A stretch of DNA of 63,609 bases, filler included, from Rhabdomonas costata (Eukaryota): NCBI GenBank assembly GCA_019059605.1. It is 57 parts of 57 records of this genome, joined end to end, with 100 filler letters (N's around TTAATTAATTAA, not from the genome) between each part and the next. Parts side by side here need not be neighbours in the genome. Positions count along the whole stretch, not along the records: positions 57,007 to 58,024 come from JAHMHO010033309.1; 56 more parts are not named here. One strand, 5' to 3'. The position numbers and the translations under genes are program-made. Positions 8,151 to 59,393 of this stretch are shown here, in pieces; the stretch's first letter is position 1; every line of letters begins with the position of its first letter. The notes under the pieces are model-generated. The model was not told the origin of the DNA. It saw nothing but the letters and a program-made list of their open reading frames with translations, and ran no database searches.

Positions 8151-10908
8151 GCGTGTTCGTATGTAAGTGTGGGTGTAGATTCCAACAATTTGCACAGTGA
8201 GGATGTGTTTATGGAGGCCCGTCGGTGGGGTCTTGTGTGGGGGCAGGGAGCTCCCGCAGATCCCACTGGTCTTGTGTGAGTGTGAGTGTGTGCATTGTCG
8301 TGCCCCTCAAAATGAGAGGTGAAAAATGTTACGAAATTGTTTCTTTTTGGACTTTCAGGGGTTTTAGGGCTGGTAAAAAGTGTCACTTTGTAAACCATGC
8401 CAGCAGAGATGTTTCGTTTGCATTGGAAGCTTCTTATCAGGTGACCTATCTGAGATATGCCGATGCTTTCCGGATGTGCATGTGACATAAGCCGTGATTT
8501 CTCGCCTCTCTCTTTTGACGTGGCCCGGGGGGCCATCTGTGTGAAGTGGAAGCAAGTTGCCTTCAGCATCATGCTGGAGCGAGATCACCGTGTAAGACCG
8601 TAAATATGGATTCGAGCTGATCTCTTCGCCTGACAGTTTCCGTACCAGTGTTTCCCTCTGCACCCAACTTTGTATGCGTTGGTATGAAGTGTATATGGTA
8701 TTCGCTGGGGTTATCGTTCTTGTCCTTCATGTCATGAGGATGGCAGCAATGAAGCTCGTCGAAAGTGAACAATATGCGAATGTGATGAAGGACAAGAACG
8801 ATAACCCCAGCGAATACCATATACACTTCACACCAACACANNNNNNNNNNNNNNNNNNNNNNNNNNNNNNNNNNNNNNNNNNNNTTAATTAATTAANNNN
8901 NNNNNNNNNNNNNNNNNNNNNNNNNNNNNNNNNNNNNNNNGTGTTTTGTGTGCCACCACTGCTGTTTGACGAAACACCATGCAGCTGTGTGTGTTTGCCT
9001 TGGGTTTTCCTCAAATTCCGGGTTGTCTGAGACCTTAGGTCTAGCTGTACAAGTATTTTTTGGTTTCTTCCTTTCCATTGGAGTGGATCAGGTGGAGTTT
9101 CTGTTCCCCCTCCTTCGCTCGCGTGACCCCGTCCGCACCAGAAGTGAACTTCCCGGTTGCCTCCATCACCTGTGCACTTACAGGTGTACCGGATAACCGG
9201 GAGCCAGGAAAGAATGCTGAACCCAGCGAAAGTCACTTGTACATTCCCTCCCTTCCGCTTGCCAAAAACGAGCATACGCTTCTTTGTGGTGAGTAGCGGA
9301 GGTATGCGAGAGATTGTGTCTGTGGAAAACTCTTTTGTTCCTTTTTCGTTGGGGTACTGGTGTGAATGCTAAAGTGGAATGCCCTACTACTGAGCTCAGC
9401 TATGAATTTAAAACATTCGATTATCCTTGGACATTTCCTTTAGACTAGTGGCGTTGTCTGCCTCCCCACCGCCTCCCCGCAACTTTCATCAAAAGCCTTT
9501 ATTTTTATGGGCGCCCTGATCTGCTGTTGCTGTTTAAAAGCCGTCATTATGGTTCTTTAGGCTCAGATTCGACGAAATTTCTATTTGGACGTTGATAGCG
9601 AAGACTCATCACCTCCAAGTGCTACTTTTTCGCCGAGTACCTCTTGTTATGGTACTCTTCTATCTTCTCTTCGCTCATGTTCCCGAGAAAGCCCCGAGAC
9701 GGTTCGTCAAAAAAGCCGGGTATAATGAATCAGTTGTCATGCGATTGTCACGCGATCCAAAAGAAAACTGCAGGGGGCAACTGTATCGCCCTCTCACCCC
9801 CTGCAAAGCCTTGTGTAACAAAATTTTTGTCGAGCTCAGCAGTTAGAGCACTTGGCCCGAGAATGCATCGGATTGAACTGATTCAGCTATCTCGGCTTCT
9901 ATTTTCCTCATGGAACGTGTATTGGTTCCTCCGCGCCGTCTTCCTTGCCCACCCCACANNNNNNNNNNNNNNNNNNNNNNNNNNNNNNNNNNNNNNNNNN
10001 NNTTAATTAATTAANNNNNNNNNNNNNNNNNNNNNNNNNNNNNNNNNNNNNNNNNNNNGGTGTGGGTGTGTTTGGTTTTTTGGGGGCAGAGGCAGCACTG
10101 GACTGAACTGTGACTGTCTGGACACTCCCGTAAAGGCTCTGGAAAAAGAAAAGAGGACGTGGGTCAGAACGTTCTGCTTGACGTGTGCTCGATAAATTCG
10201 AGCATAGGCTTTCCAAAAGCTCATTGTCCCACCCATTGTCTCCATCCTTTGCGCAAAAGACGAGACATTCAATTTTCAAGCATGCATTCTTTTTCGGGTG
10301 TGTTTATTGCAAGAAACAGAAACACGAACGCACCGTGAAGGCACCATCTCTCAGTGGCTTTCCAGAGAAATTTCAAGGCAACATGTGGAACGAACCTCCC
10401 TTTCACATCGACAGAAGGAGCACTCGTAGTCACACGAAGCAGAGGCAAGCGCAATCCCGGTTTATTGACAGGGAGGAAGATGCACATGGAATCAGCACAG
10501 TGGAGTGGAGGCCCCTAAGAAGGGAGAGTGGCTTGGGGCCCAAAGTATTGACAAAAAGAAGACTCCACCAGTGCTGAACAGCGGGGGAATGACCAGAACC
10601 CATTCACCCCACAAGTAAGCAAGGTGCATGCGTAGGAAAAGATGCAGTCACACAGTTACACACCACAAGCACAGAAGAAGCAAAAAAAAACATTCAGAGA
10701 AAGGGAACACGGGAGGGTGCAGCTGGAATTTGGAAATTGGACCACGAAGCCGCAAACCCAAGAAAAAGTGAAAGCGCATTGCAGTGCACTGATTTCAGGG
10801 AAAGTGCTGCTAAGGTCTGCGAGCGCCGTGGCAGAGCAGCACCTTGACATGAACAGCGAACTTGGCTGGGGACGCCTCTCACCGGGCCACGGGGTTGGAG
10901 GCACGCAC

Positions 10909-12074: not shown

Positions 12075-12186
12075 CCGTATACTCCCCCACGGGGACTTTG
12101 CTTGGGGTGGCCGGGGTGGACATGGAGCTGGGCTTCTTGAACCAGATCCTGGTCGGGCTGAATCTGGTTCAAGAAGCCCAGCTCCA
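12075..12186 (+). CDS. Exon encoding part of a Cache (dCache_1-like) sensor domain
   Basis: AVYSPTGTLLGVAGVDMELGFLNQIL matches Cache consensus PVYxxxGxLLGVxGVDIxLxxLxxxL; ctcag| acceptor. Confidence 0.7.
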
Positions 12187-14037
12187 CCCCACCCNNNNNN
12201 NNNNNNNNNNNNNNNNNNNNNNNNNNNNNNNNNNNNNNTTAATTAATTAANNNNNNNNNNNNNNNNNNNNNNNNNNNNNNNNNNNNNNNNNNNNTGTTTT
12301 GTGGGCCTTCGGTGGGGTGGGGCGCGCTGTGGGGCCGATTGGGCCCTGAGGCGGCGCCGGGGCCTTCCCTGGGGAGACGGTGACGCCACTGAGGGAGGCG
12401 TTCAGCTTGAGGTTCTGCTGGTGCACTCGGCAGAAAGGCGGGCTGGAGGCGTAAGAGACCTCCTGCGGGGAGTGAGTAGGATTGGTAGTCGACGCACGTT
12501 TTCACATAAAACCAGCCGATTTTCATTTCATCTTTGTGCCCAATTCCAACGGAAAATTATGAAAAAAAAAGTTCAACCAAATCAAAGCTTGATAACCGAT
12601 GAACGAAGAGCAAAAACACCAAAAATGACCTTACTCGATTATCATGCTCGATTACCGATTACCGTGACTCCCCTCCCACAGGGGTCGATCGATCCACCAA
12701 AACACGAATTCACCACTGGATTACGGATTACGATTGATCGATAAGTCGACTACTAATCCCAGGAGTGAGATTGGGATTCCAGGGTAAGATTAACTTCCGA
12801 AAATCGACGTTCAGTGCGTATGTTTCAGTTGAAATCCTGGGAACATATGAGGGAGCCCATCGATATTTGGAGCGTTCCGACGGGCTCCCTCATTTCCACC
12901 AAAGAGCTGTCCTCCAGAAATGCTGGCAAAGGGAAATAAAGCGCCTCTAAACGCAGGGAGATGGACTGAGCCAAAAACAAGAGTGTGCCTGCGCAGTAGA
13001 TGGGTGGAAAAGAACAGACAGAAGGTAAAGGGGAAAGACAGAAAGTGCAGTTTCGCATTTGCTTTCTCGTGGCCAGAACTGAAAAAAAAAGCCTTTTATT
13101 TTATGATTTCCCGTTATTCGACAAAAAGCCTCATCTTTGGCGAGATTTGCGAGGGTCGGTTGCGGAGAATGACAACGCATCAGTCCAGCATTTCACTCTT
13201 TTACTCTCTCATTCTTGTTTCATTATTTCTATGAAGCTGAACATCACGTAACTTGAGAGAGTAAAAGAGTGAAATGCTGGACTGATGCGTTGTCATTCTC
13301 CGCACCAACCCCNNNNNNNNNNNNNNNNNNNNNNNNNNNNNNNNNNNNNNNNNNNNTTAATTAATTAANNNNNNNNNNNNNNNNNNNNNNNNNNNNNNNN
13401 NNNNNNNNNNNNTGTGTCAACTCAAGATGAATGTCTGGTTGCTATGGTTGCTGGAGTTGAAAAGAAAAGTTGAATTCAGCATTCGACTGTTCAACTCTTC
13501 GATTGTCTCGCTGCGCTGGTTGGTACTGAGAAACGCTTTTCCTTCTGATGGTGATGTTCAAAAGCTGTCTTGGGCATAGTCCTTTGGCTCTTTCTGGGCC
13601 TCGGTGTTTGCACGTTGTCATCTTTTGTGGGGAGAGTGAAATGCAACCCAGGCAATCGGTCCAGTGACGTCAAAAGCCAGATACAGCTGTCTCGTGGGTA
13701 GGTTTCAGTGGTGGGACATGTTCAACCTTTCCGTTTTCGACAGTTAGCTGACTGCGGCGGTGCGTTTCCATGGAAAACTGAAGTTTTTCCAACAGGCCAA
13801 AAAGCCTCACCGCAACAGAGCGCAGGTGTAGGCGAGCCACGGTGTTCTCAGAGCACCACACATTTCGGTCAAATTGGTAGACAGGCGTCGGGAAGATGAA
13901 GGGTGATGGCAGGCAAAGACAGAGTCACGAATGGCGAGATTTCAGTTGCCACTTCCTTTTGTTGGGGACGAGTTAGACATGCCGGGGTAGTCTGACCGCA
14001 AGCATTCCGAAGTAATTGCCCCTTTTCCTTTTATCAG

Positions 14038-14530: not shown

Positions 14531-15548
14531 TTGTGTTGTTTTATCTTTGATACAAACAAAAATATCAATCCACGGTATTTTTAAATGTCTATTATTATCA
14601 AGATATAAATAATTATTTTCATTTAATTCAACATTATTTTGTTTTATAATATGATTTACTGTTGGTAAATAAAAAGCTACATTAAAAAATAAAATTTCAT
14701 AGGATTCAAAATTTTCACAAATTTGAGAAAATAAAATGTAATTTGTTGTATATTTACTGTAATATGGCATATTATTATCTAGTAAAATTTGTGTCATTTT
14801 TCTTTCTTGATTCTCGTTATAATGCATATAAATTTGTAAATGATTACATAATAATTTGTAAATTAATTGTAAAATATGATGTTTATAATCTTTTTTTTCA
14901 ACAATTACTAAAAAATCATTATCATCATCAGTTACATCAAAACAGTTGTATCTATGGACTGAAAAATAAGTATTACCGAATGGAAATATTTGATCATGTT
15001 TCAATATATTATTTTTTATTGCAATTGAATAAAATGTTTTCATTAATAGATAAGACAATGCTGTAAAATAAATATTATAAATATGTTTTGATATTTGTAT
15101 GATAATATGATCTATATATAGATAATGAGTCATAACATCTTTATTTATTTTTGTATTTAAATAATATAAAATTTGTTTTTGATCATGTGACAATTGAGTA
15201 TAATTTGTAACATCTGTATTTTGAATACTTGTGCCAATTAACATTTTAACATCCAATTCTGGTTCCCATGGATCAAATGGTGTAACAAATTTAATTTTAA
15301 TTAATTTTTTAACTTTATCTTGTAAAACTTTATTATCTATTGACATAACCATATGTAACATTATATAGTTGAATGTTTGACATCCATGAGATCGTTGAGT
15401 ATGTTGATTATTAATTTTTGTAAAAGTTGCATATGGGTTTGTTGTATAAACTTGAAATTTACTTTGATAGTTCCATGGTTTAACAACAAATCCTGCAAAT
15501 GTAAAACCAAATGAATTTTCCATTTCTAATAACCATGAACCAAAACCC
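14531..15548 (-). CDS. AT-rich intron-less partial ORF, divergent LicD/fukutin-family nucleotidyltransferase-like; probably non-host (giant-virus-like)
   Basis: Frame open across the whole contig (about 20% GC by eye); FGNTYFSVHRYNCFDVTDDDNDFLV resembles LicD GTLLGAVRxxxxIPWDDDxD; downstream PWIDIFV. Confidence 0.55.
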
Positions 15549-16650: not shown

Positions 16651-18279
16651 TCCTCCCAACACCACNNNNNNNNNNNNNNNNNNNNNNNNNNNNNNNNNNN
16701 NNNNNNNNNTTAATTAATTAANNNNNNNNNNNNNNNNNNNNNNNNNNNNNNNNNNNNNNNNNNNNGGGTGCTTGGTGTGCTTTGGATGCTTGTGTTTCTT
16801 CTATGGGTATAGGTGCGTAGGTGTTGGGTAGAATAGGATAGAGCAGAATGCAGTAATCCAGAACCCGAACTCAGAAACACGGAACCCAAAAACCAAACCA
16901 CAGAATTCGAAACCCTAAACCCCTAAAAACCCTAAAAATCAAAACAGGTGGTCCAGATTTACTGCACCACATCAAAAAATCACCTTCCGCGCAAAAGAAA
17001 TGGCCACAGTGGTGAAAAATTCTCCACCCCAATTACAGAATTCCACCACTTTCATAATTCCCGCATACACACATGATATGACATGATACAGAATGCCAAA
17101 AGGGTAGCCAAGGACCACCTATTCTGCATCAAAAGTGATAAAATACGCGTAAAATTCCCACCTACATAAAGGCCAAATACGCGCAAGAGGTTACACATAT
17201 GCTCACGTTCTGTAGCACTGACAGTGCACTTGAAACACGATTCTGACAGTGATTTTCACACGCATTTTGAGAGATATCCGGATATGTAGAATTATGTAAA
17301 TTCTTAAACGATGCTAGTAAAAGTGTAAAAAAGAATATTTTTTCATCTATTTTTCTTTTTTCAAGTGCTTGTATGCATTTGTGTATATGATATGATATGT
17401 ACACTTTATTAAAAATGCTTAACGTGTAAAAATCAAAAAACCAAAAACTTTAACAAATTGTAAAAAAAATAAAAAGATGAAATTCTGATAAAATGTTTAA
17501 AAGATGCACGTAAGACCATCTCACTTGCACCTCATATAATTCTGAAAAAGGGAGGGTTTATGTGGTGAAGAAGGGAGATGCAGGAAGATGCATCATACCT
17601 GCATCTGATACCCATAAGAGAGAAAAAGGCCTCTATGTTTGCTGGTCGTGTGTTCCTCGCACTAGCTCCAACCACACAACCTACCCAAACAGCATCGGCA
17701 ACAACTCCAACAGCAACACCCACTCCGAGTCCACTACAACCACTGACTCCTACTCCAATAGAAATACAACCGATACACACCACANNNNNNNNNNNNNNNN
17801 NNNNNNNNNNNNNNNNNNNNNNNNNNNNTTAATTAATTAANNNNNNNNNNNNNNNNNNNNNNNNNNNNNNNNNNNNNNNNNNNNGTGGTGGGTGGGGTCG
17901 AGGAGGCCAGGGAGCTTGCCGCACACACGCTGGTGGAGGAGGAAGCCGGGCTGCCGTTTGACAGCTACGTGGTGTGCTTTGTGCACCCGAAGATCATGCA
18001 GGTTTGAATCGTTGGTGGGTGGTCTGCCGTTTTTGGCCTCCCAACGCATATCTTGCAGTTAGGGTAAATTATTGCCAACTTGCCAAAGTTGTGGAAAAAA
18101 TAGAAATCATTTCAAAACAAAGACGGGTTGGGTTTTTGTAATGTGGTTTGCCCTGCATTTGCATGCGGTTCACCCTTATTGTCGAGGGATGTCGCGAATT
18201 GTTTTCTGTTAGTGCATTGGGGCTCACTGTCTCCCGTCGGCAGTTATACGTGTTCCACAGAGTTGTGTTTTGGGGTGAG

Positions 18280-19992: not shown

Positions 19993-20621
19993 TCCAAAAC
20001 ATCGGTCTTCCCCAACAACANNNNNNNNNNNNNNNNNNNNNNNNNNNNNNNNNNNNNNNNNNNNTTAATTAATTAANNNNNNNNNNNNNNNNNNNNNNNN
20101 NNNNNNNNNNNNNNNNNNNNGGTGCCTTCACAACCGCGCCCACCCAACGCACACGTGCACACAGATATATACACAGCCCCACATCCCTCTCCGCAGCTTT
20201 GGAGTCAGGGGTTGTGTATATATCTGTGTGCACGTGTGCGTTGGGTGGGCGGGGTTGCTTTTCTCGACCTCTTTGTTTCAAAATGACGCTGTTCTGGGAT
20301 GTACGGGGGTCAAAGCTTCCCTGGGCTGCCAGTGCCTTCCGTTGCGCCACACTGGTGGGAAAACGGGGCCATCACGTGAGAAGCTATTGGATGCACCCTG
20401 TGCCTGAACTTTTCGGCCTTGCCTCCAGTGCTGTTTCGCCGGCGTCCTGTGTCTGACTGAAGTGCTAATGAAAGCCTCACTCCTTTTTTCTCGCCTTCTC
20501 TGAAGTTTGTGGTAGGGGCCCTTCCCTCCAAATTTTTATCTGCTCTTTCTCAGCGCCCCTGCTTCCCTTCCCATTCCCTTCTCCCAGCACCCTTTGGAGC
20601 CCACTTCTTTCGCTCTGCGAG

Positions 20622-21138: not shown

Positions 21139-22557
21139 NNNNNNNNNNNNNNNNNNNNNNNNNNNNNNNNNNNNNNNNNNNNTTAATTAATTAANNNNNN
21201 NNNNNNNNNNNNNNNNNNNNNNNNNNNNNNNNNNNNNNGGGGGGTGGGGGCGCTCTCGATCTGGATGTGCTGCAGCCGCCGCAAGGCAAAGCAGCTCCTG
21301 GAGACCCTCCGCAACGCCGCCCCGGCGTCACTTGGGGGTCAGCAGGGCCCCGCAGCGCAGAAGTTGGAGGAGGAGCACTAAGGATGAGAGTAACGGGGTC
21401 CCCCTCGCTTCGCCGGCATTGCCGGAATGGGGGCTTGGTCAACGGGGTCGGCTCTCTTTGTTGTTGCCGCAGGCTTCCAGGAGTGGCGTCTGGGTTTTAT
21501 TTGCTCCAGTTCTTGGGTCTGCGCAGCCCGTTGTCTGCACACCTTATTTAAGTATCTTTGCACATCTTATTTAAGCATCTTTGCGATCAGCTTCTACCCG
21601 AGCTACTGAATATGCGGTTAAGTGCTGATGCTCGATTATTAGGAAGGAGGCGGGAGGATTATTAGCAAGGTAGAGGGGACGTCCCGCAGGAATCGTTTTA
21701 CAATACTGGCCCTACTGGCCCTGGCTTTCCACACGTACGCTAATGATTTGCCCCAAGTGATTCCAAAATAACGTTGCGCCCATGGGCACGGACTAGCCAA
21801 TTCATAGATGGAAAACTCTTCTATCGTTCGATGCGAGCAGCGGCAGCCCCCGCCCAGCTGCGCACCCGATACACCTCACCCGCAAAGTCCTTTTTCGGAT
21901 CATTTCTGTGGCCTCATGTATTTTTCCTGTGAAATGGGGTGCGGTGTGTTGGGCTGAGGTGAGATTTCGCGCCTGTTTTTTCTTTCCTCCTTTAGCTTCG
22001 TGCTCCTTTGAGGAGCTTGTTGGCGTTTGGATTTTTGCCATCGTACCGTACCGCAGGAGCTTTCTTTGTCGAGACTCCTTTGCATCTGCCGCTCTCCCAA
22101 CTGGTGCTTTTTTACCGGCGGGCAGGTTATACAAAACGACTCTGCCGCTGGAGTGCCTTTATCTCAAAGACTTTCCCTTTCCGCTCCACTCTGACCAATC
22201 GCTCTTTCGAGGCGAAAACGGCGACACACGCACCAACAACCCAAACACACCACACANNNNNNNNNNNNNNNNNNNNNNNNNNNNNNNNNNNNNNNNNNNN
22301 TTAATTAATTAANNNNNNNNNNNNNNNNNNNNNNNNNNNNNNNNNNNNNNNNNNNNGGGTTGGTCACTGAAATACGTCCGTTAGGGTCTGGCGTGCACGA
22401 GCGCAAACGGACGTATTTCAGTGACCGACCGAGAGAGAAAGCGAAAGAGACTCATCAGACCATCAATAGCATTATATGTGTGGACGTGAAAGACAGGAAA
22501 GAGGATCCTGGGCATCAAGCAAATCCCACCCACCCACAAACACGGAAAGGCGGATAC

Positions 22558-25370: not shown

Positions 25371-28300
25371 TCTGTAAGTCGTGTTGGCGTGGCCTACCCT
25401 AGGTCTAGCATAACATTGGAGGTGCCGAAGGCCGCATCACCGCAAATAATTTCCAACTCGAATGAGTATTCACTAAATCATGCGTTTCCTTCGGAAACTT
25501 TCGTTTCCCGGGGCCCAGGAGAAGGCGACGGGAGGAAAGGTACACAACTGTTTTCATTTTCACAACCAAGGTGGGTTGTGTACAGCGTTGGGGCCGTGGC
25601 AGTTCACAGANNNNNNNNNNNNNNNNNNNNNNNNNNNNNNNNNNNNNNNNNNNNTTAATTAATTAANNNNNNNNNNNNNNNNNNNNNNNNNNNNNNNNNN
25701 NNNNNNNNNNTCTGAGAAATAACTTCTTCCCCAATAACTCCTTTGTCGGCTCATAGTCCATTATTCGACCTCCCCTGCCGTCTGTGTGATCCTCTGGACC
25801 GCAAACCTCACAACCTCTAGCCTCTGCATTCTGCAGCAACGGAATCTTCCATGTCTGGATCCGGAAATTTAGCTGGGGCTTCACTGGCTCTTTAATTGCT
25901 TTCTTGACCGCTGGGGGTGGAGCCGAGGCCGATATCGGCCCTCGCTCCCTTTTCAAGGTCCGCCCTTTCCTCGTCTCTGCATCAACTGCCTCATCATCAT
26001 CATCAACGTGATCTCTAAGAGCTGCCAATGGATCTCGAATGACGTCTGCACCATTCGCACTCAAGCTCATTACTGTGCAACCCTTATCTGTGGAACTCTT
26101 ATCTCCGCTCTCACTTGGCATGGGTTGGTGGTGATGCACCTCCTGCACTCTGTTGTCCTCCACCGGCACTGCTCTCTGCAACTGGAGCCCCGCTGGGTCC
26201 ACCCATATAGGGATCTGAATTGACTTCCTGGTCATCTCTCTGCATAACATCCTATGGAGCACATGTGGCGTCTGCTCTACTCCCATTCCTATGAAAAGGT
26301 AAAACTCATCTGGAGCACTTAGTATCCACGAAATACATCTGCTTTCAAAGATAGAAACTCTGAAATATGTCCATTTACTCCGCTGCGCATAGTCCTCTCA
26401 GTTTTCCACTCCCTCTGCATACTGATACGGAAGTTTGGTGGAGCAACAACAGGTCGTAACACCCCCGCTCTCGCAATTTATGAAAAGCAAACACAGACAT
26501 CTCCTCTTCAAGTCTTTCTGGATTCTTTAGCAACTCCAAAATCTGGTCTTTAACTATGTCCAACTTCAGCCAGAACCTCACCCACCATTGGTACTGTGGA
26601 GAATTAATAGGCTCTTGAGTCAAAGCTTTGTCTACGTTCAACAGATCTAGACCCATGCCACTCAAACAGTGCAGCATGGCCTTCTACTCTAGTGGAATCA
26701 CAAGTATAATATCTGCAAAAACCCACACNNNNNNNNNNNNNNNNNNNNNNNNNNNNNNNNNNNNNNNNNNNNTTAATTAATTAANNNNNNNNNNNNNNNN
26801 NNNNNNNNNNNNNNNNNNNNNNNNNNNNTGCCAGACGCCCTTTTTCAGCGTTAAATCCTGTTTCTGCCGTCAAACCGTAAGATCTTTTTTTTGGGGGATA
26901 TAACCGGCTTATTACCGTCTGTGGGAGAGCAGCAATGTACGGCCCCTGGGATTTCGAGAAGAAGCTTGTAAGATAACGTTCCTTGTTAACAAGGCCAGAA
27001 ACATCCTGGGAATTGTTTCGCTTGTAAGTGGTGATACCGTTTTTCGCCTGGCCACCAAAATGAGATCACGCAAACGCGAGCCTCCCCTTCTCCTCGCCGG
27101 AAGGCAATTCAAGCAGTGCTATTCTGACATCGGAGTTGCACTTAGGGTAAGCCCCGCACACCTCTTGCAAGGCAACCACAAAGGCCTCTCGGACCCGCTG
27201 CTCTTCTTGCGCGACCTCAGGGGGGCAGCTCGTGCACACAATCCCTGTACCCAAAAAACCTAAAAACGACATAAAAGAAAAAAACAGAGGACAAAGAATG
27301 ATTCTCCCCAATCCATTTTCCAGAGAGTTGGAGCAGAGCTTCCTCGGGCGCCCAGCCGCACGAAGGGGCGACAAATAGAGAGTGCTACGCCACTGGTTTA
27401 ACTGGAAAGGTACAACGTTGAACCACTGTGTGTTGTCTAACCTACTTAAGGGCAGCGCACAAGGCACGGTCCCAGGCGACCCAGGCAGGGTGGCACACCA
27501 GGAGAACAACGAGCGGAATGAACAAAGTTCCTTAGGACGAGAAGCTTCCCACGCAGCTCGGAAACCTTGCAAAAGCAAAGCAAAAAAAAATGCTAGACAG
27601 CATCTATGGCAACACGGTTTCGCTGCCGTCTCGGGGAATTAAAGTATGGCCCCGCCGTGTCAAAGTGAGAAGCGGAAAACTACAGCAACAGTTAATATCA
27701 CACGAACACCGGGAAAAGATCCACACACACACACACCCAGAAAGGGTAACCGGGTAACCTGAATTTAGGAGCTTCCAACACACAATAAACAGCAAGGCAG
27801 ACGTAGTTTACAAAAGACGTCTTGTTTACTCCCTAAACCCCACACANNNNNNNNNNNNNNNNNNNNNNNNNNNNNNNNNNNNNNNNNNNNTTAATTAATT
27901 AANNNNNNNNNNNNNNNNNNNNNNNNNNNNNNNNNNNNNNNNNNNNTGTGTTTGTGCAGATGATCAGCTTCCGCAGGTCCTGCGGGGTCGGATCATCTGC
28001 ACAAACGAACCAGTCACAGGATCTGGGCGCATTCGTTTCTTTTCCGAAACTTTTCTAACGCTACAAAAAAAGAGACCTTTCTACCGTTCCTAAGGTTTTT
28101 TGGATGTGTAATCCCTCTGACGATTTTTGAATTACAGCAAAAACAAAGGCTAGCAAAACCAGCGGGAAACAGAAACAAAAAGAGATGGAGCAAAAAAAAG
28201 AATAAACAACCCCCACTGTCTACAAAATACGATTTATCCGTCTAAAAGTAGGAGGAGAAAGTGCCACGAGTTCTTCTTCGGTGGATGGGTGTGGGAATGC

Positions 28301-42915: not shown

Positions 42916-43816
42916 CGTTTTCTTTTGGGGAGCTGTGCTCTCTTTTATAGAATTATAGGAATAGGGAGTGGTGACCTCTGACAACAGCAATCGCAACAGA
43001 AGCAATATGACACAGAGAGAGACCTTTGAGGAGGTTACAAAGAAACGGGCAAAACCAGGCGGAAGCGGCTGGATACTACCTCAGCTCTTTTGGATCTCCT
43101 AAGAGACATGGCGAAGGCAAGATTCGGGCGGGAGGTGTGTGTGTGTGTGTTGGGGGAGAAGGCAAGAGTTTGATCCCTGCCATCTATCCGGCGCTTTCGC
43201 AATGCATCAGAGTAAGGACTTTTTCCCGAATGAGTGCCACTGAAAGATGGAGCCGGAAACTGCGTCCCGGTTTCCAGTGGAAGGACATTCCGATGTGAGT
43301 CAGAAGATCCCAAGACCTCCCGGACTCCACTCCTATCCGGAAATGGGAAACACAGATCTCCCGCGCCATACAAAGACGTGGAGCGTCTTGAACAACAGAG
43401 AAATGTGTTCTGCTGTGGAACCCAAGAACCCACGCAATTGTCCCTCAGAGAAGTCCGGTTGTCCCGCACATTGTAAAGTTTCGTGCACCCCAAACCCCNN
43501 NNNNNNNNNNNNNNNNNNNNNNNNNNNNNNNNNNNNNNNNNNTTAATTAATTAANNNNNNNNNNNNNNNNNNNNNNNNNNNNNNNNNNNNNNNNNNNNGG
43601 GGGTTTTGGAGGTGACTACTTTTGTTCAGATCGTTAATGCTGACGTTGCTGCTAATGCTCTGATTCCACAAGCCTGAGGTACACATTGGGCACCGGAAAG
43701 AGAGAATTCGCAGCAACGTCAGCATTAACGATCTGAACAAAAGTAGTCACCTCCAAAATTCCATTTCTAAAAGACGCCCTTGATCGAGAATGGAAGAACG
43801 ATTTACACTTCCGCAG

Positions 43817-45836: not shown

Positions 45837-46852
45837 GAAGTCATTGGGGGCCTCCCTCTTGGAGCTTATGCTATTCGGGATCCACGGCTGGACATGCTCG
45901 CTCGGAGGCTGCGGTGGCTCCAAGTACTGGGGAACCACTCCGGGATGCTGGGTACCCTGCACCGCCGCCTGGCGTCCTCGGATGGTGCAACTTGGGTGGA
46001 GCCTACTCCTGCTCTTGCAGCTGCGCTCTCTTCTTTTCGGTGGCGAGTTCACTGCAATCGTCAGTCGCTTGCAGCTTCCTCCTGGCCTCGGTTGGATCCT
46101 GAGCCCTCCTACAGGGGCGACCTTCGGTACACGCCGGTGTCTGACCCCGTACCTCGGGGCGCTGTTTGGACCGATGGCTCTGTGAGCGTCCGTGGTGGCG
46201 CTGCTGCTCTTCAGTGGCATTCCTCGGCCTCTTTCCAGGCCCACGTGTCAGCACCGCGTAGTTCTACCCATTGCGAGCTCGTGGCACTTACTCTGGTTGC
46301 GGGCTTCCAGCCGCCGCCGTCTCTGGTGCTCACAGACTCGCTATGTGCCCTGCAGCTTCTGGGGTCATGGGGTCGACGCCCTCCCAGTGAGGTTTTCTCT
46401 TGCCCTGAACGGGCGGTGGTAAGGGAGTTCCTTCACCAGTGGACGCATCGTCGTGATGCCCCCATCCTTGAGAAGGTCAAGGCACATGACGACGCGGCGG
46501 CGGCCAAGGGTGTGGTCAAAGCCCTGGGCAATGCGGCCGTGGACCTCCTGGCCAAGCAGGCCGCGATCTCTGCGGGAATGCTCCATGTAACCGATCCTCG
46601 CTTTGAGGATGCGGTCCAGCTTCGGGATGAGTCGGGGATCTGCATCTCAGATCTTTCGGCGGTTGTCACCACCGCTTGGTGGGCCGCTCGCCTTCAGGAG
46701 GGCCGTGCGCGTAGATCTTGGCTCGCCCAGCTCTACCCCTCTGGGATGGCCTTTGACTGGGCTTCATCTACTGTGATCTTCCGGCGTCCACAGGTGGCGG
46801 ACCACTCTTTTGTGTTCCCTGCGGGCCCGCCGGTTATCAAGTGGGTCGCCCG
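45837..46852 (+). mobile_element. Non-LTR retrotransposon ORF fragment with an RNase H domain
   Basis: Intron-less frame open across the whole contig; WTDGS...STHCELVAL...LTDSL...KVKAH...GNAAVDLLAK carries the RNase HI D-E-D-D residues. Confidence 0.85.
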
Positions 46853-49013: not shown

Positions 49014-49813
49014 GTGCAGCGCGCGCGCACACACACACACACACATTTTCTCTAGCGCGCGTTTTCCCCTCCACCCAACCAACANNNNNNNNNNNNNNNN
49101 NNNNNNNNNNNNNNNNNNNNNNNNNNNNTTAATTAATTAANNNNNNNNNNNNNNNNNNNNNNNNNNNNNNNNNNNNNNNNNNNNGTTTGTGTGGAGAAGG
49201 CCCTTACAGAACCTACAACTGATTACACGGCGGGAAGCAGTTGTAGGTTCTGTAAGGGCCTTCTTCATACAAACCAAAATAAGGAAGCGTCCAGCCAGTG
49301 CAACGTTCACACATATCCTGGGATCACAACCCGGGGTTATACATATAGCGACCGGTAAAGAAATGACTCAGTACGGGAAGAAAAAGGACTGACAGTACAC
49401 CACGGCAGAGGCGCAGCAGGTGCTTCTTTTGAGCCACACACGGGAGAGCATGAGACACTGCGTGTTTTCGTTATCGACTGGAATCTGAAGGCTCCGTTCA
49501 GGACACTGGGCTGGTCGCTCATGCTGTCGCCTCTGCGATAGTGTCAGTGTGAAGGTGTTTGTGTGCCAGATGCGGAGCGAAGCCTTGGGTCCCGTGATCA
49601 ATTCTCATCTTCCGAGCTAGCAGCCTGTGCCTCAAAGTTGTTGGCTAGTGCAGAACTGTTGTTTTTTCGCGAGAGTGTCGGCACGCATCCGCAGCCCACG
49701 TGCGATGATCGATGAGCGCTGCGGGCTCGGTTTGAGCCCCTACCTACAGGCCTACCCACAGACCCACATGCTCAGAAACAGAGCTGAGAGAGAGATAGAG
49801 AGAAGGGGAAGAC

Positions 49814-50941: not shown

Positions 50942-51577
50942 CTGAAGAATGGGAAACATGGGTGAAGGTGGGGAGGGGATGGTCAAATAATTAAGCTTCA
51001 CATGTTCACATGGGCTTCAGTCGACATCGAGTCGCGTTTGCGGATTAGTAAACCTTATTGAATTGAAGCTAGAAGGAAGAAAGAGAAAGCTAATCGTCAG
51101 CCCTCTTCAGGTAAATAGGAACGGGACGCTGCAGTGAGGGCTCTGTCTTGCGGAATGCAAATTGCTTCATCGAAGAACCACTGCTACATTCACTACCACT
51201 GCGTTAAAAAAAGGTGCTACCAGGGCGCAGATCCTGATTTTGACTGCCGGAAAAGGGCCGGAAAGGAACTGGAGATGTCATTACTGAGTAGTAGCTAGAG
51301 ACTGGGAAGCTACCAACACANNNNNNNNNNNNNNNNNNNNNNNNNNNNNNNNNNNNNNNNNNNNTTAATTAATTAANNNNNNNNNNNNNNNNNNNNNNNN
51401 NNNNNNNNNNNNNNNNNNNNGTTGGTTGGGCTTCGCCCAGACCTTCACGTGTGAGGACCCCGAGCCCGGCTGATGCTCCGCAGCATCGCCTCCGGGTCCT
51501 CACACGTGAAGGTCTGGGCGAAGCCCAAGCAGCAAAAACAGCATGGGGGTACAGTTGGGGCCCATTTAGGGTTGAAT

Positions 51578-55789: not shown

Positions 55790-57006
55790 NNNNNNNNNNN
55801 NNNNNNNNNNNNNNNNNNNNNNNNNNNNNNNNNTTAATTAATTAANNNNNNNNNNNNNNNNNNNNNNNNNNNNNNNNNNNNNNNNNNNNGTGGTGTGGTG
55901 TGGAGTCCGTTGGTCCCTCGGGAATTACGAGCCCGCGGCGTGGCGTCGGAACGCTAAAAGAACTTTTCGTTACGAAATTGGAATTTGTCGAGAATATTCA
56001 AATAATTAATAAATCCGAGTTCCAGAATTTCCATTTTGTTCAGGTGGTTTTTCATGCGGCGTTTCGCCTGTGGGTGTGGCGGAGCTTCCTGTTGTTCATC
56101 CGCACCAGGATTAATTGTGGATTGGCTGTCTCAGTTTTAGCTTTTTTGGCGCTCAGAAGTGTTCTCTTCTGTATACTGTGGAATTCCAAATGGTGGATGG
56201 AAGTTCGCCAGCACTCCGACCAGATCTGGGAGTATGTTGTACGGAGCCCCACAAGCACATGTGGATCTCTCTGGATCTTGCTGCTCTGTTTGGTTGTCGC
56301 AATCATATTCGTATGTGATACCCCCCCACACTGGCGTCACTCCACCCGGCGTCCTTTGTGCGTTTTTATTTGGGACATCTTTGGTTTTGGCCAGTTTTCC
56401 TCAGTTTGCTTTGTACTAAAACAAATTTTCCGTCTAGAAAATGCAGTTTGACAAAACTGTGAGATGGTTTTCCCTAAATGTCCCGCGGACGTTTATGATG
56501 AAAGCTTGCTTGATTTGGGCGCTTAGCGGTGGGACGCTTTTGACCGCTCTCAGGGCACGGAAAGCGGGCGTGTTGGATGGTGGGTTCTTGCGGTTGCCGT
56601 GCTCTTCGGGGTGGCTTTACACCTCACTGCTGTTGTGGAAGGTGAAGTGAAGACGATAAGGCGGGAACATCAGAGTGGGCCTGCCTTTTGAATGCCTTTT
56701 TTCCCGGTCATTTCGTCGGTTCACTCCTGATTTGCAATTTCTTTTTCGCAGAGTCGATGTTGGTCATCTCTGCTCTTGGGGTGCAACTTGCACAGAGGCA
56801 GCGATGCGGGCGCATCACGTGTGCTGTGACCTTTTCCGAGCAAGTGAGACTGACTACTGATATTTTTGGTTTTTGGGTTACCCCCCTGGGTTATTTTCAG
56901 GATGTTNNNNNNNNNNNNNNNNNNNNNNNNNNNNNNNNNNNNNNNNNNNNTTAATTAATTAANNNNNNNNNNNNNNNNNNNNNNNNNNNNNNNNNNNNNN
57001 NNNNNN

Positions 57007-57926
57007 AATGATGAGATATATACTGGAACAGTTGAATTTACCCATTTAGAACTTGTTGAATTGTATACAAGAACTTGATTATTTGAAGCACTTGATATAT
57101 TAAAATCTGATAAATATGAACTTGATAATGTTATGTTAGCCCATTTTGTACTTGTTGAATTGTACACAAGGGCTTGATTGTTTGGTAATGTACCTAATGA
57201 AACATCAGTTAGTGATGATAAATGTATTGGAGTAACATATAATGATAATGTTGACCATCCAGTGCCATTATAAATGTAAGATCCATTATTTGTACTTGTA
57301 GAATCATTTGTTACAAGGCATACATCACCTTCATCTGCTGTCAATGCGTTTCGTTGTGCTATAGTGTTAACAGATGTTACATTCGTAATAGACAGACTAG
57401 GAATTTGAGATGTATTTAATTTTCCGAATCTAATGATGCTAGACCGTTTGCCTGAGCTTTAGAATTTATAAAAGTATCCAAATCAGGTATATCTGATGTT
57501 GTTAATAGCCTATTTCTCCATTTATACCCACCACTTTCGACATTTCCTAATGTATATACAAGTACATGACCAACAGCTAAATCAGAAGCTACAACATCTT
57601 GTAATTGTGAAATTTTATAACCGCATGCTGTACTTGTTAAAGTTACCGCATTTGTTCCATCAGTAATAATAATATTATTTTGATCTCAAATAACTGGATA
57701 TAATCGTCTGTATGCTTCATACAATAATAAGTTCAATTGATTGTATAATATGTTACCAAAAACTTTTTGATAGGTAACAAGAGGATAACCAGAAGTTGAA
57801 TCAGTTGTTACTGTAAAATCAGTACCTGCTATGTAACGATTTTCATAAACCCAATCATCATAGATTCTAGCAAAAAACCCAGTATATCCAGTTCCTAATG
57901 AATATGAAGCTGTATCTGCTGATAAA
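57007..57926 (-). pseudogene. AT-rich viral tail-fibre/adhesin-like gene with an in-frame TGA and a frameshift
   Basis: The frame continues through TGA (57688-57686) to ...KAQANGLASLDS, shifts at about 57426 to GKLNTSQIPSL..., then repeats LSSLTDVS...NQALVYNSTSTKWAN / LSDFNI...NQVLVYNSTSSKWVN. Confidence 0.7.
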
Positions 57927-59393
57927 TTCATTAGGAACTGGATATACTGGGTTTTTTGCTAGAATCTATGATGATTGGGTTTATGAAAATCGTTACATAG
58001 CAGGTACTGATTTTACACAAACAANNNNNNNNNNNNNNNNNNNNNNNNNNNNNNNNNNNNNNNNNNNNTTAATTAATTAANNNNNNNNNNNNNNNNNNNN
58101 NNNNNNNNNNNNNNNNNNNNNNNNTTTGGTACCCAGAAAATGGTTTTGTTTTAATCAACCAAGAAGCGGGTGAATCAGTGTGATTTTTTTGTGGCTGGAA
58201 GCGGAGTCCGCAGACAGCCTTTGGATGGGTGGCGAAACTCTCCCCTGGGGGACTGTCACTCTTCGGGTGTTGGTGTTGAAACTCCACTACTTGGCGCTGA
58301 CTATGACCCTTGGGTTCCCCTTCTTGTTTTCTGTTCCTGTAAAGCATTGTTTTTGAGGTTTCTTGGCACGTTCATCCCAGGTTGCTGGTCCGTAGGTGCG
58401 GGGATTATTCAGGCAGCACGGTAATGAAATTATTATTGCCGTTGACACGTTCGTGGTGAAATCATCAGCCGAAAAGCTCCATAGAGTGCACTCTGTCTTC
58501 TATTTCGCGTTTTCAGGGCGCATTCTTTTCGCAGCTTACCTGTATCTCATTGGTCACTTCCGCTTGATTATGGCGGGTACCTTTGATGTTGTTGTACTTG
58601 TTTTTCTATGCCTTGGAGTGCGGGCTAAGGTCCACAAAACCGAAAACCTCTCCTCGCACGAAGTTAAAGGACCGGTGAATGCCTCGCTCCCATCGGGTGT
58701 GCATTTGGGGACAATCGCATTTTTGGGAGGGCGTTAAACGTTTAGAACTGCTGGTGCTGTGCTAAACGTTTTTGGCTTTTGCGGATTTTTGAAATCGTCG
58801 TTGCTGGGCTTTGACATCCAATTTTAGTATACGTGCGGAGGCCTGCAAGCGTTTGCCGGAGGGGCGGATGGGTGGGGACGTTCAGTTGTGTTAGCGCCGA
58901 TAAACTCCTAGCAGTGCTACAGGTCCGGAGTGGACACTTATGGGGATATAGTATCCTTTGGGCACGGAATTTAGATAAAATGTGTCAACGTCAACTACCA
59001 ACTGCCAAATGCATTTAAACATTTTGGATTAGGTATACTGTTTTTGTGCCTCCTAGACAGAAAATTTGGGGGGTTAACAAATTTTTGCCCGTTTTACACT
59101 GCTTAACGTTAAGCGGGGGATAAACGCCCCCCGCCCCCCCCNNNNNNNNNNNNNNNNNNNNNNNNNNNNNNNNNNNNNNNNNNNNTTAATTAATTAANNN
59201 NNNNNNNNNNNNNNNNNNNNNNNNNNNNNNNNNNNNNNNNNAGCACATGTACCGGAACTTTGGGCTTTTGGGGTTGGAATTATTCCAACTGCTTAATTTT
59301 CAATCTCGCATGGGCCCCTGACGTTGCCAACCTTTTGTTTACTTGGACAAGCGACGCACACAAACATACACGCACGCACGCAGGCACGCACAC

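Follow-up and report, generated by a model that had tools for sequence, protein, structure and literature searches.

A probable tailed-phage-type fibre gene fragment with two frame lesions in the genome assembly of Rhabdomonas costata

We find that an AT-rich contig in the genome assembly of Rhabdomonas costata (GCA_019059605.1) probably represents a fragment of a large modular gene coding for a tail-fibre-like or virion-structural repeat protein of the kind encountered in tailed phages, its source being either an AT-rich phage that is uncultured or the prophage of an associated bacterium. Phage or prophage DNA would then have been co-purified and assembled along with that of the GC-richer eukaryote, and we infer that the protein of an intact relative would serve as the fibre or receptor-binding appendage of the phage particle. 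The gene piece is internal, comprises about 306 codons, and is truncated at both ends.

Results and Discussion

Composition of the window and of the contig

The window, that is, the entire stretch of 63,609 nt that was analysed, was split at runs of N into 57 stretches of 1014–1019 nt, each of which is a separate contig. The spacers between contigs (e.g., 56907–57006 and 58025–58124) consist of N, TTAATTAATTAA and again N. Since the contigs are unrelated and merely joined, adjacency within the window has no genomic meaning, and only positions 57007–58024 provide the context of the gene. This contig of 1018 nt, flanked by such N/TTAATTAATTAA spacers, has a GC content of 0.313, as compared with 0.482–0.628 for 54 of the 56 other contigs, which bears out its preliminary description as an AT-rich contig among GC-richer ones. 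Considering also that the GC3 of its gene is 0.127, the contig is not host-like. It contains solely AT-rich coding sequence and its own fold-back copy, and a host-like flank is absent.

Where GC-rich contigs contain long open frames, these are pieces of eukaryote-type genes, i.e., an MFS transporter, a piece of an AFG1-like ATPase and a weak RNase H match, and an Rfam scan of the whole window yielded zero matches. Of the 16 longest open frames (at least 150 codons each) on the other contigs, none exhibits a phage or viral function or belongs to a phage-specific family, and the sole PHROG match among them is to a family of unknown function, for a frame which Pfam assigns to the MFS transporters.

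Two of the other contigs are outliers in GC content. The one at 14531–15548 (GC 0.214) has a single intact frame of 339 codons running from end to end on the minus strand, for which neither Pfam nor PHROG contains a family and whose sole relative (38% identity) is located on a metagenome contig of 39,673 nt. This contig may be organellar or stem from another AT-rich organism, and no connection with the fibre contig was found. The second outlier (16766–17784; GC 0.394) contains only ORFs of 53–92 aa, none of them long. Separately, a 338-codon frame on the plus strand spans the contig at 45837–46850; its RNase H match of 23.6 bits is below the Pfam cut-off of 25.8, and the frame looks like part of a retroelement.

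Layout of the gene

The gene is located on the minus strand. Its N-terminal domain is followed by a linker motif that is conserved and then by repeat units, each about 33 residues long. Frame 0 provides 79 real codons (57925–57689; segment A), which are open at the 5' end and encode the first part of the N-terminal domain. An in-frame TGA follows (57688–57686), at a site where the aligned relatives mostly have Arg, and the frame then stays open for 89 further codons until a TAA is reached at 57418–57416. The first 86 of these (57685–57428; segment B) extend to the D of ANGLASLD and include the first ...DV...LVY...KW.N copy. Two bases (57427–57426) constitute the frame break, located between the last matched codon of frame 0 and the first of frame 2. 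The latter frame opens with GKLNTSQIP at 57425 and remains open over 139 codons up to the contig end at 57007 (segment C, 57007–57425). This segment is tail-fibre-like and contains two more repeat copies 99 nt apart: the tandem units at 57041–57184 (57041–57085 and 57140–57184) are 87% identical over 45 nt and encode ...LVYNSTS.KW.N, and self-comparison of the contig reveals a third, weaker copy at 57613–57641. Stop-free outcomes are so rare among 20,000 mononucleotide shuffles (26 for the 79-codon stretch, 6 for the 89-codon stretch and 0 for the 139-codon stretch) that the open stretches exceed chance.

Frame translation thus confirms the coordinates given in the preliminary description, i.e., a TGA at 57688–57686 with approximately 87 codons continuing to the S of ANGLASLDS, and a shift of frame near 57426 after which the gene resumes with GKLNTSQIP in frame 2 from 57425. 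For the upstream ORF, the open frame stands, whereas its assigned start (ATG at 57931–57929) is spurious: this ATG sits within a terminal fold-back copy (see below), and the contig therefore contains no true gene start.

Two listed ORFs constitute one broken gene

The upstream query, P0001, comprises 171 residues with the TGA read through under translation table 4, and P0002 represents the downstream piece. A HMMER search with P0001 against 1.84 billion representative proteins identified 68 relatives at E<=1e-3, 16 of them at E<=1e-10 (best 4.2e-25), which are metagenome proteins. When these were compared with the contig by use of tblastn, 59 of the 68 relatives turned out to have HSPs that span the TGA (62 HSPs in all), and at the break the frame-1 HSPs stop at 57425–57428 and the frame-3 HSPs start at 57425–57422. 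Furthermore, P0001 and P0002 both match P0006, P0007, P0012, P0026, P0033, P0045, P0056, P0062 and P0069, among others. In P0012, P0026 and P0045 the P0001-like and P0002-like segments adjoin in the order found on the contig, while in P0056, P0062 and P0069 their order is unlike that of the contig; the segments are shuffled modules of one protein class. Since relatives align across both lesions, the two listed ORFs are one broken gene, as had been proposed: relatives span the TGA and match both sides of the break.

Segment B contains no ATG, GTG or TTG start that would give an ORF of at least 40 aa, and the pieces are hence not separate genes; a split gene with restart of translation is ruled out for the same reason. 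Given that neither downstream piece has a start of its own, this copy cannot yield a full-length protein.

Three of the relatives are giants: P0006, P0007 and P0021 comprise 2517, 3161 and 3011 aa, respectively, and each contains 3 to 10 stretches of the N-terminal domain, with stretches of the repeat part numbering 11 in P0006 and 16 in P0007. Of the relatives, P0007 is encoded on a contig of 152,939 nt and P0033 on one of 65,182 nt. The 10 best relatives are from one- or two-member clusters (ENA, JGI, Logan) bearing no informative names or taxa, and the sizes of their contigs range from 623 to 152,939 nt. The closest relative exhibits 54% identity over 55% of the query, and the 'near' word-index search returned two proteins; with no relative closer than 54%, a test for selection (dN/dS) is impossible. 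The blank returned by the 'longer' word-index search is uninformative, since relatives of 320–433 aa exist.

Phage kinship of the repeat part

It is the repeat part that connects the gene with tailed phages. Among the PHROG families, P0002 matches phrog_29752 (1e-9), phrog_13853 (1.7e-9), phrog_9627 (9e-9) and phrog_24501 (5.7e-7) and, among those with a functional label, the tail protein family phrog_26941 (2e-6) and the virion structural protein family phrog_2824 (5.5e-5). These six families are common to P0002 and its relatives, with matches that cover short repeat stretches and not the whole protein, and the four best are families without assigned function. The relatives show the same affinity: 11 of the 12 that were scanned have PHROG matches at E<=1e-5 (five of them to phrog_29752 and six to phrog_13853), P0049, P0056, P0057 and P0069 contain tail or tail-spike families, and the strongest matches are those of P0007 to phrog_29752 (2.8e-41) and of P0049 to the tail-spike family phrog_4636 (5.6e-46). 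In addition, P0069 matches hypothetical proteins of Microcystis myoviruses.

In a tblastn comparison, P0002 matched 21 phage records at 38–44% identity (best E 3e-5), none of the matches covering at least 80% of P0002. The matched genes include an annotated long tail fibre of PA5oct-like jumbo phages (XAI94163.1, 'long tail fiber protein' of vB_Pa-PAC2, a PA5oct-like Pseudomonas phage) and a large gene (gene 17) of Salicola phage SCTP-2. What the gene shares with these jumbo myoviruses is (i) the repeat, which is about 33 residues long and ends in ...Y....KW.N, (ii) a location within large modular proteins, and (iii) a stretch at residues 66–133 of P0002 with 43% identity (E 3e-5). The likeness is, however, limited to the repeat part, and the N-terminal domain has no counterpart in 50,697 phage records. 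The Atlas clusters nearest to P0002 in terms of language-model features are mostly from Uroviricota, and some carry Mtd_N (PF18454) or PTR (PF12789, phage tail repeat), with scores of 0.90–0.91; a Pfam scan of P0001–P0004 finds neither at E<=1, so that this represents resemblance and not membership. At the same threshold P0004 gives merely a chance-level PUA match, comparison of P0002 with PDB sequences yields none, and a blastn search of phage records with the contig yields zero matches. The viral fibre-like character claimed in the preliminary description is thus borne out by the PHROG and tblastn matches, the Atlas neighbours and the families found in the relatives, and can be specified as being of the tailed-phage kind.

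The N-terminal domain

The only new item in the contig is the N-terminal domain, which on sequence grounds would appear to define a hitherto undescribed family present in at least 68 metagenome proteins, some of them exceeding 3000 residues. Pfam and NCBIfam scans of the gene pieces yield no family; matches of P0001 to PHROG are weak and at chance level (best E 0.0097); tblastn of P0001 finds no match in the 50,697 phage records; and the A4 profile retrieves four chance-level rows (E 0.21–0.32) from PDB sequences. Consequently, it is the repeat part, together with the other domains of the relatives, that underlies the phage label. The two patterns EAY[RK]R[LIF]YPV and RR[LIV][FY]P[VI][VI]RD[TKQ] occur in 11 and 13 stretches, respectively, of 185,579 prokaryote species genomes, none of which is confirmed by tblastn; these scans detect the two peptide patterns only. 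The pLDDT of the structural model of the domain was 57.1 at first and 68.8 with a 56-row alignment, reaching about 80 over P0001 residues from about 31 to 100. Of the 500 matches that Foldseek retrieves from BFVD with this model, none reaches E<=0.001 (best E 0.054, TM 0.14), and neither does any from the PDB (best E 0.37), which leaves the domain without an assigned fold.

A terminal fold-back shared with host contigs

Positions 57926–58024 (minus strand) are an inverted copy of 57805–57903, with arms of 99 nt that are 98% identical and a loop of 22 nt (57904–57925). Self-complementary blocks of 57–224 nt located at most 10 nt from a contig end are present in 10 of the 57 contigs including this one, the others being the GC-rich contigs with blocks at 8678–8840, 12123–12186, 13153–13311, 20131–20257, 22358–22430, 27950–28006, 43604–43758, 49185–49274 and 51426–51531; the fold-backs of three GC-rich contigs, when read by eye, are clean hairpins. 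Because fold-backs recur on nine other contigs, the one considered here is an artefact pervading the data set and not a viral hairpin end, and the hairpin telomere of a linear virus is likewise ruled out by the similar terminal fold-backs of GC-rich host contigs. Their recurrence points to an origin in amplification, library making or assembly. In one account of multiple displacement amplification (MDA), the chimeras formed are described as being mostly inverted (PMC1855051). That the contig shares such a fold-back with nine host contigs also renders the quality of its sequence doubtful.

Origin of the contig

Several observations stand against derivation from a phage or prophage: the 1-kb contig contains this gene alone and hence no phage hallmark gene, the N-terminal domain has no counterpart in the phage records, the blank outcome of the prokaryote scans, which detect two peptide patterns only, speaks against a prophage or a bacterium as the source, and two inactivating lesions within 920 nt are not what one expects of an active phage.

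An unlikely reading is that the contig derives from a free virus of the eukaryote, that is, a giant or other large AT-rich virus equipped with phage-like fibres. An AT-rich composition is common to many giant viruses, some relatives are giant proteins (2517, 3161 and 3011 aa) and their contigs measure up to 152,939 nt, and the searches made detected the family neither in prokaryote genomes nor in phage isolates. However, the families shared with the relatives are PHROG phage families, with E-values down to those of P0007 (2.8e-41) and P0049 (5.6e-46), the Atlas neighbours are Uroviricota, and the giant-virus rows retrieved from BFVD are non-significant (E>=0.16, TM<=0.16).

The preliminary description had favoured an endogenous viral element, that is, a virus-derived gene (Polinton-like, virophage or giant virus) integrated in the nuclear genome of the eukaryote and decaying there. 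The presence of two inactivating lesions within some 920 nt of the assembled sequence, the lack of an own start in the downstream pieces, and the failure to find the domain family in prokaryote genomes (two motif scans) or isolate phages are all in keeping with this proposal. We nevertheless consider it improbable and do not adopt it, since (i) the contig contains no host-like bases, (ii) a GC3 of 0.127 indicates no drift towards the composition of the host, (iii) the other domains of the relatives are phage families, (iv) the N-terminal model finds no significant match among eukaryotic-virus structures (0 of 500 at E<=0.001 in BFVD), (v) the 16 longest open frames of the other contigs show no phage or viral function, and (vi) the lesions may equally well have arisen as errors, the contig being possibly of low coverage and the assembly visibly containing artefacts, among them the fold-back of this very contig.

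Also quite improbable is a further reading: the gene might belong to large AT-rich viruses of a lineage not yet recognised, with giant fibres bearing the domain whose RR[LIV][FY]P[VI][VI]RD core has so far been encountered in metagenomes only, and the copy found here might be a recent inactivated insertion in the eukaryote or a persistent associate of it.

Nature of the two lesions

Returning to the phage or prophage fragment as the probable identity of the contig, the two lesions may be real mutations (of a dead paralogue or the remnant of a cryptic prophage) or errors of the consensus in a contaminant contig of low coverage, and we consider these about equally likely. Assembly errors are not everywhere, given that the frames of two further contigs that are coding throughout remain intact for 338–339 codons, though these two may be high-copy sequences; a contaminant contig with low coverage and an existing fold-back artefact could contain consensus errors. 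At the frame break, the register is lost inside the conserved linker motif, with two bases present where relatives have two codons: P0069 and P0049 run unbroken through the motif, with two residues in place of bases 57427–57426 of the contig. A programmed frameshift is unlikely, since the change is confined to two bases between the conserved D and G codons without a slippery heptamer at that position, and is also opposed by relatives that are continuous across the site.

At the position of the TGA, 64 aligned stretches from 60 relatives show R (50), Y (6), H (5), C (1), W (1) and K (1), with G in 0. A single transition separates TGA from CGA (Arg), a codon used for 2 of the 7 Arg residues of the gene. 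The Trp codons of the gene are five TGG and, if counted, one TGA, which is the only in-frame TGA in 308 codons; in purine-ending codon pairs 44 of 50 codons (88%) end in A and 6 in G, and with such usage a TGG:TGA ratio of 5:1 has a probability of P = 1.3e-4 if TGA were to encode Trp. The Arg site of the relatives and the preference for TGG hence make recoding of TGA unlikely, in agreement with what had been surmised before; the earlier reason, namely that TGG is used for Trp, becomes valid only when quantified in this manner.

Recoding of TGA to Trp in AT-rich phages has been described as preferentially affecting structural and lysis genes (bioRxiv 10.1101/2021.08.26.457843), and the contig resembles such stop-codon-recoded gut phages in that its phage-like structural gene is AT-rich and contains an in-frame TGA. 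The reading in which TGA is a sense codon (Trp under table 4 or Gly under table 25) of a recoded phage or Mollicute-like organism, with the frameshift alone being a lesion or error, is nonetheless very improbable: aromatic residues are tolerated at the site (Y 6, H 5 and W 1 of 64), yet in contrast to those phages the lone TGA occupies an Arg position (Gly in 0 of 64) in a gene using TGG as its regular Trp codon despite 88% A-ending usage, and the frame break is left unexplained.

Implications

The contig is, in the first place, a matter of quality control: being of phage type and containing a fold-back as well as frame errors, it should be flagged as probable contamination and not be annotated as a gene of the host or as an endogenous virus. 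If the reading as an unrecognised virus lineage were true, phage-like fibre genes would be part of the virus-derived DNA of this protist. Finally, the family defined by the N-terminal domain may mark uncultured large phages that are worth describing.
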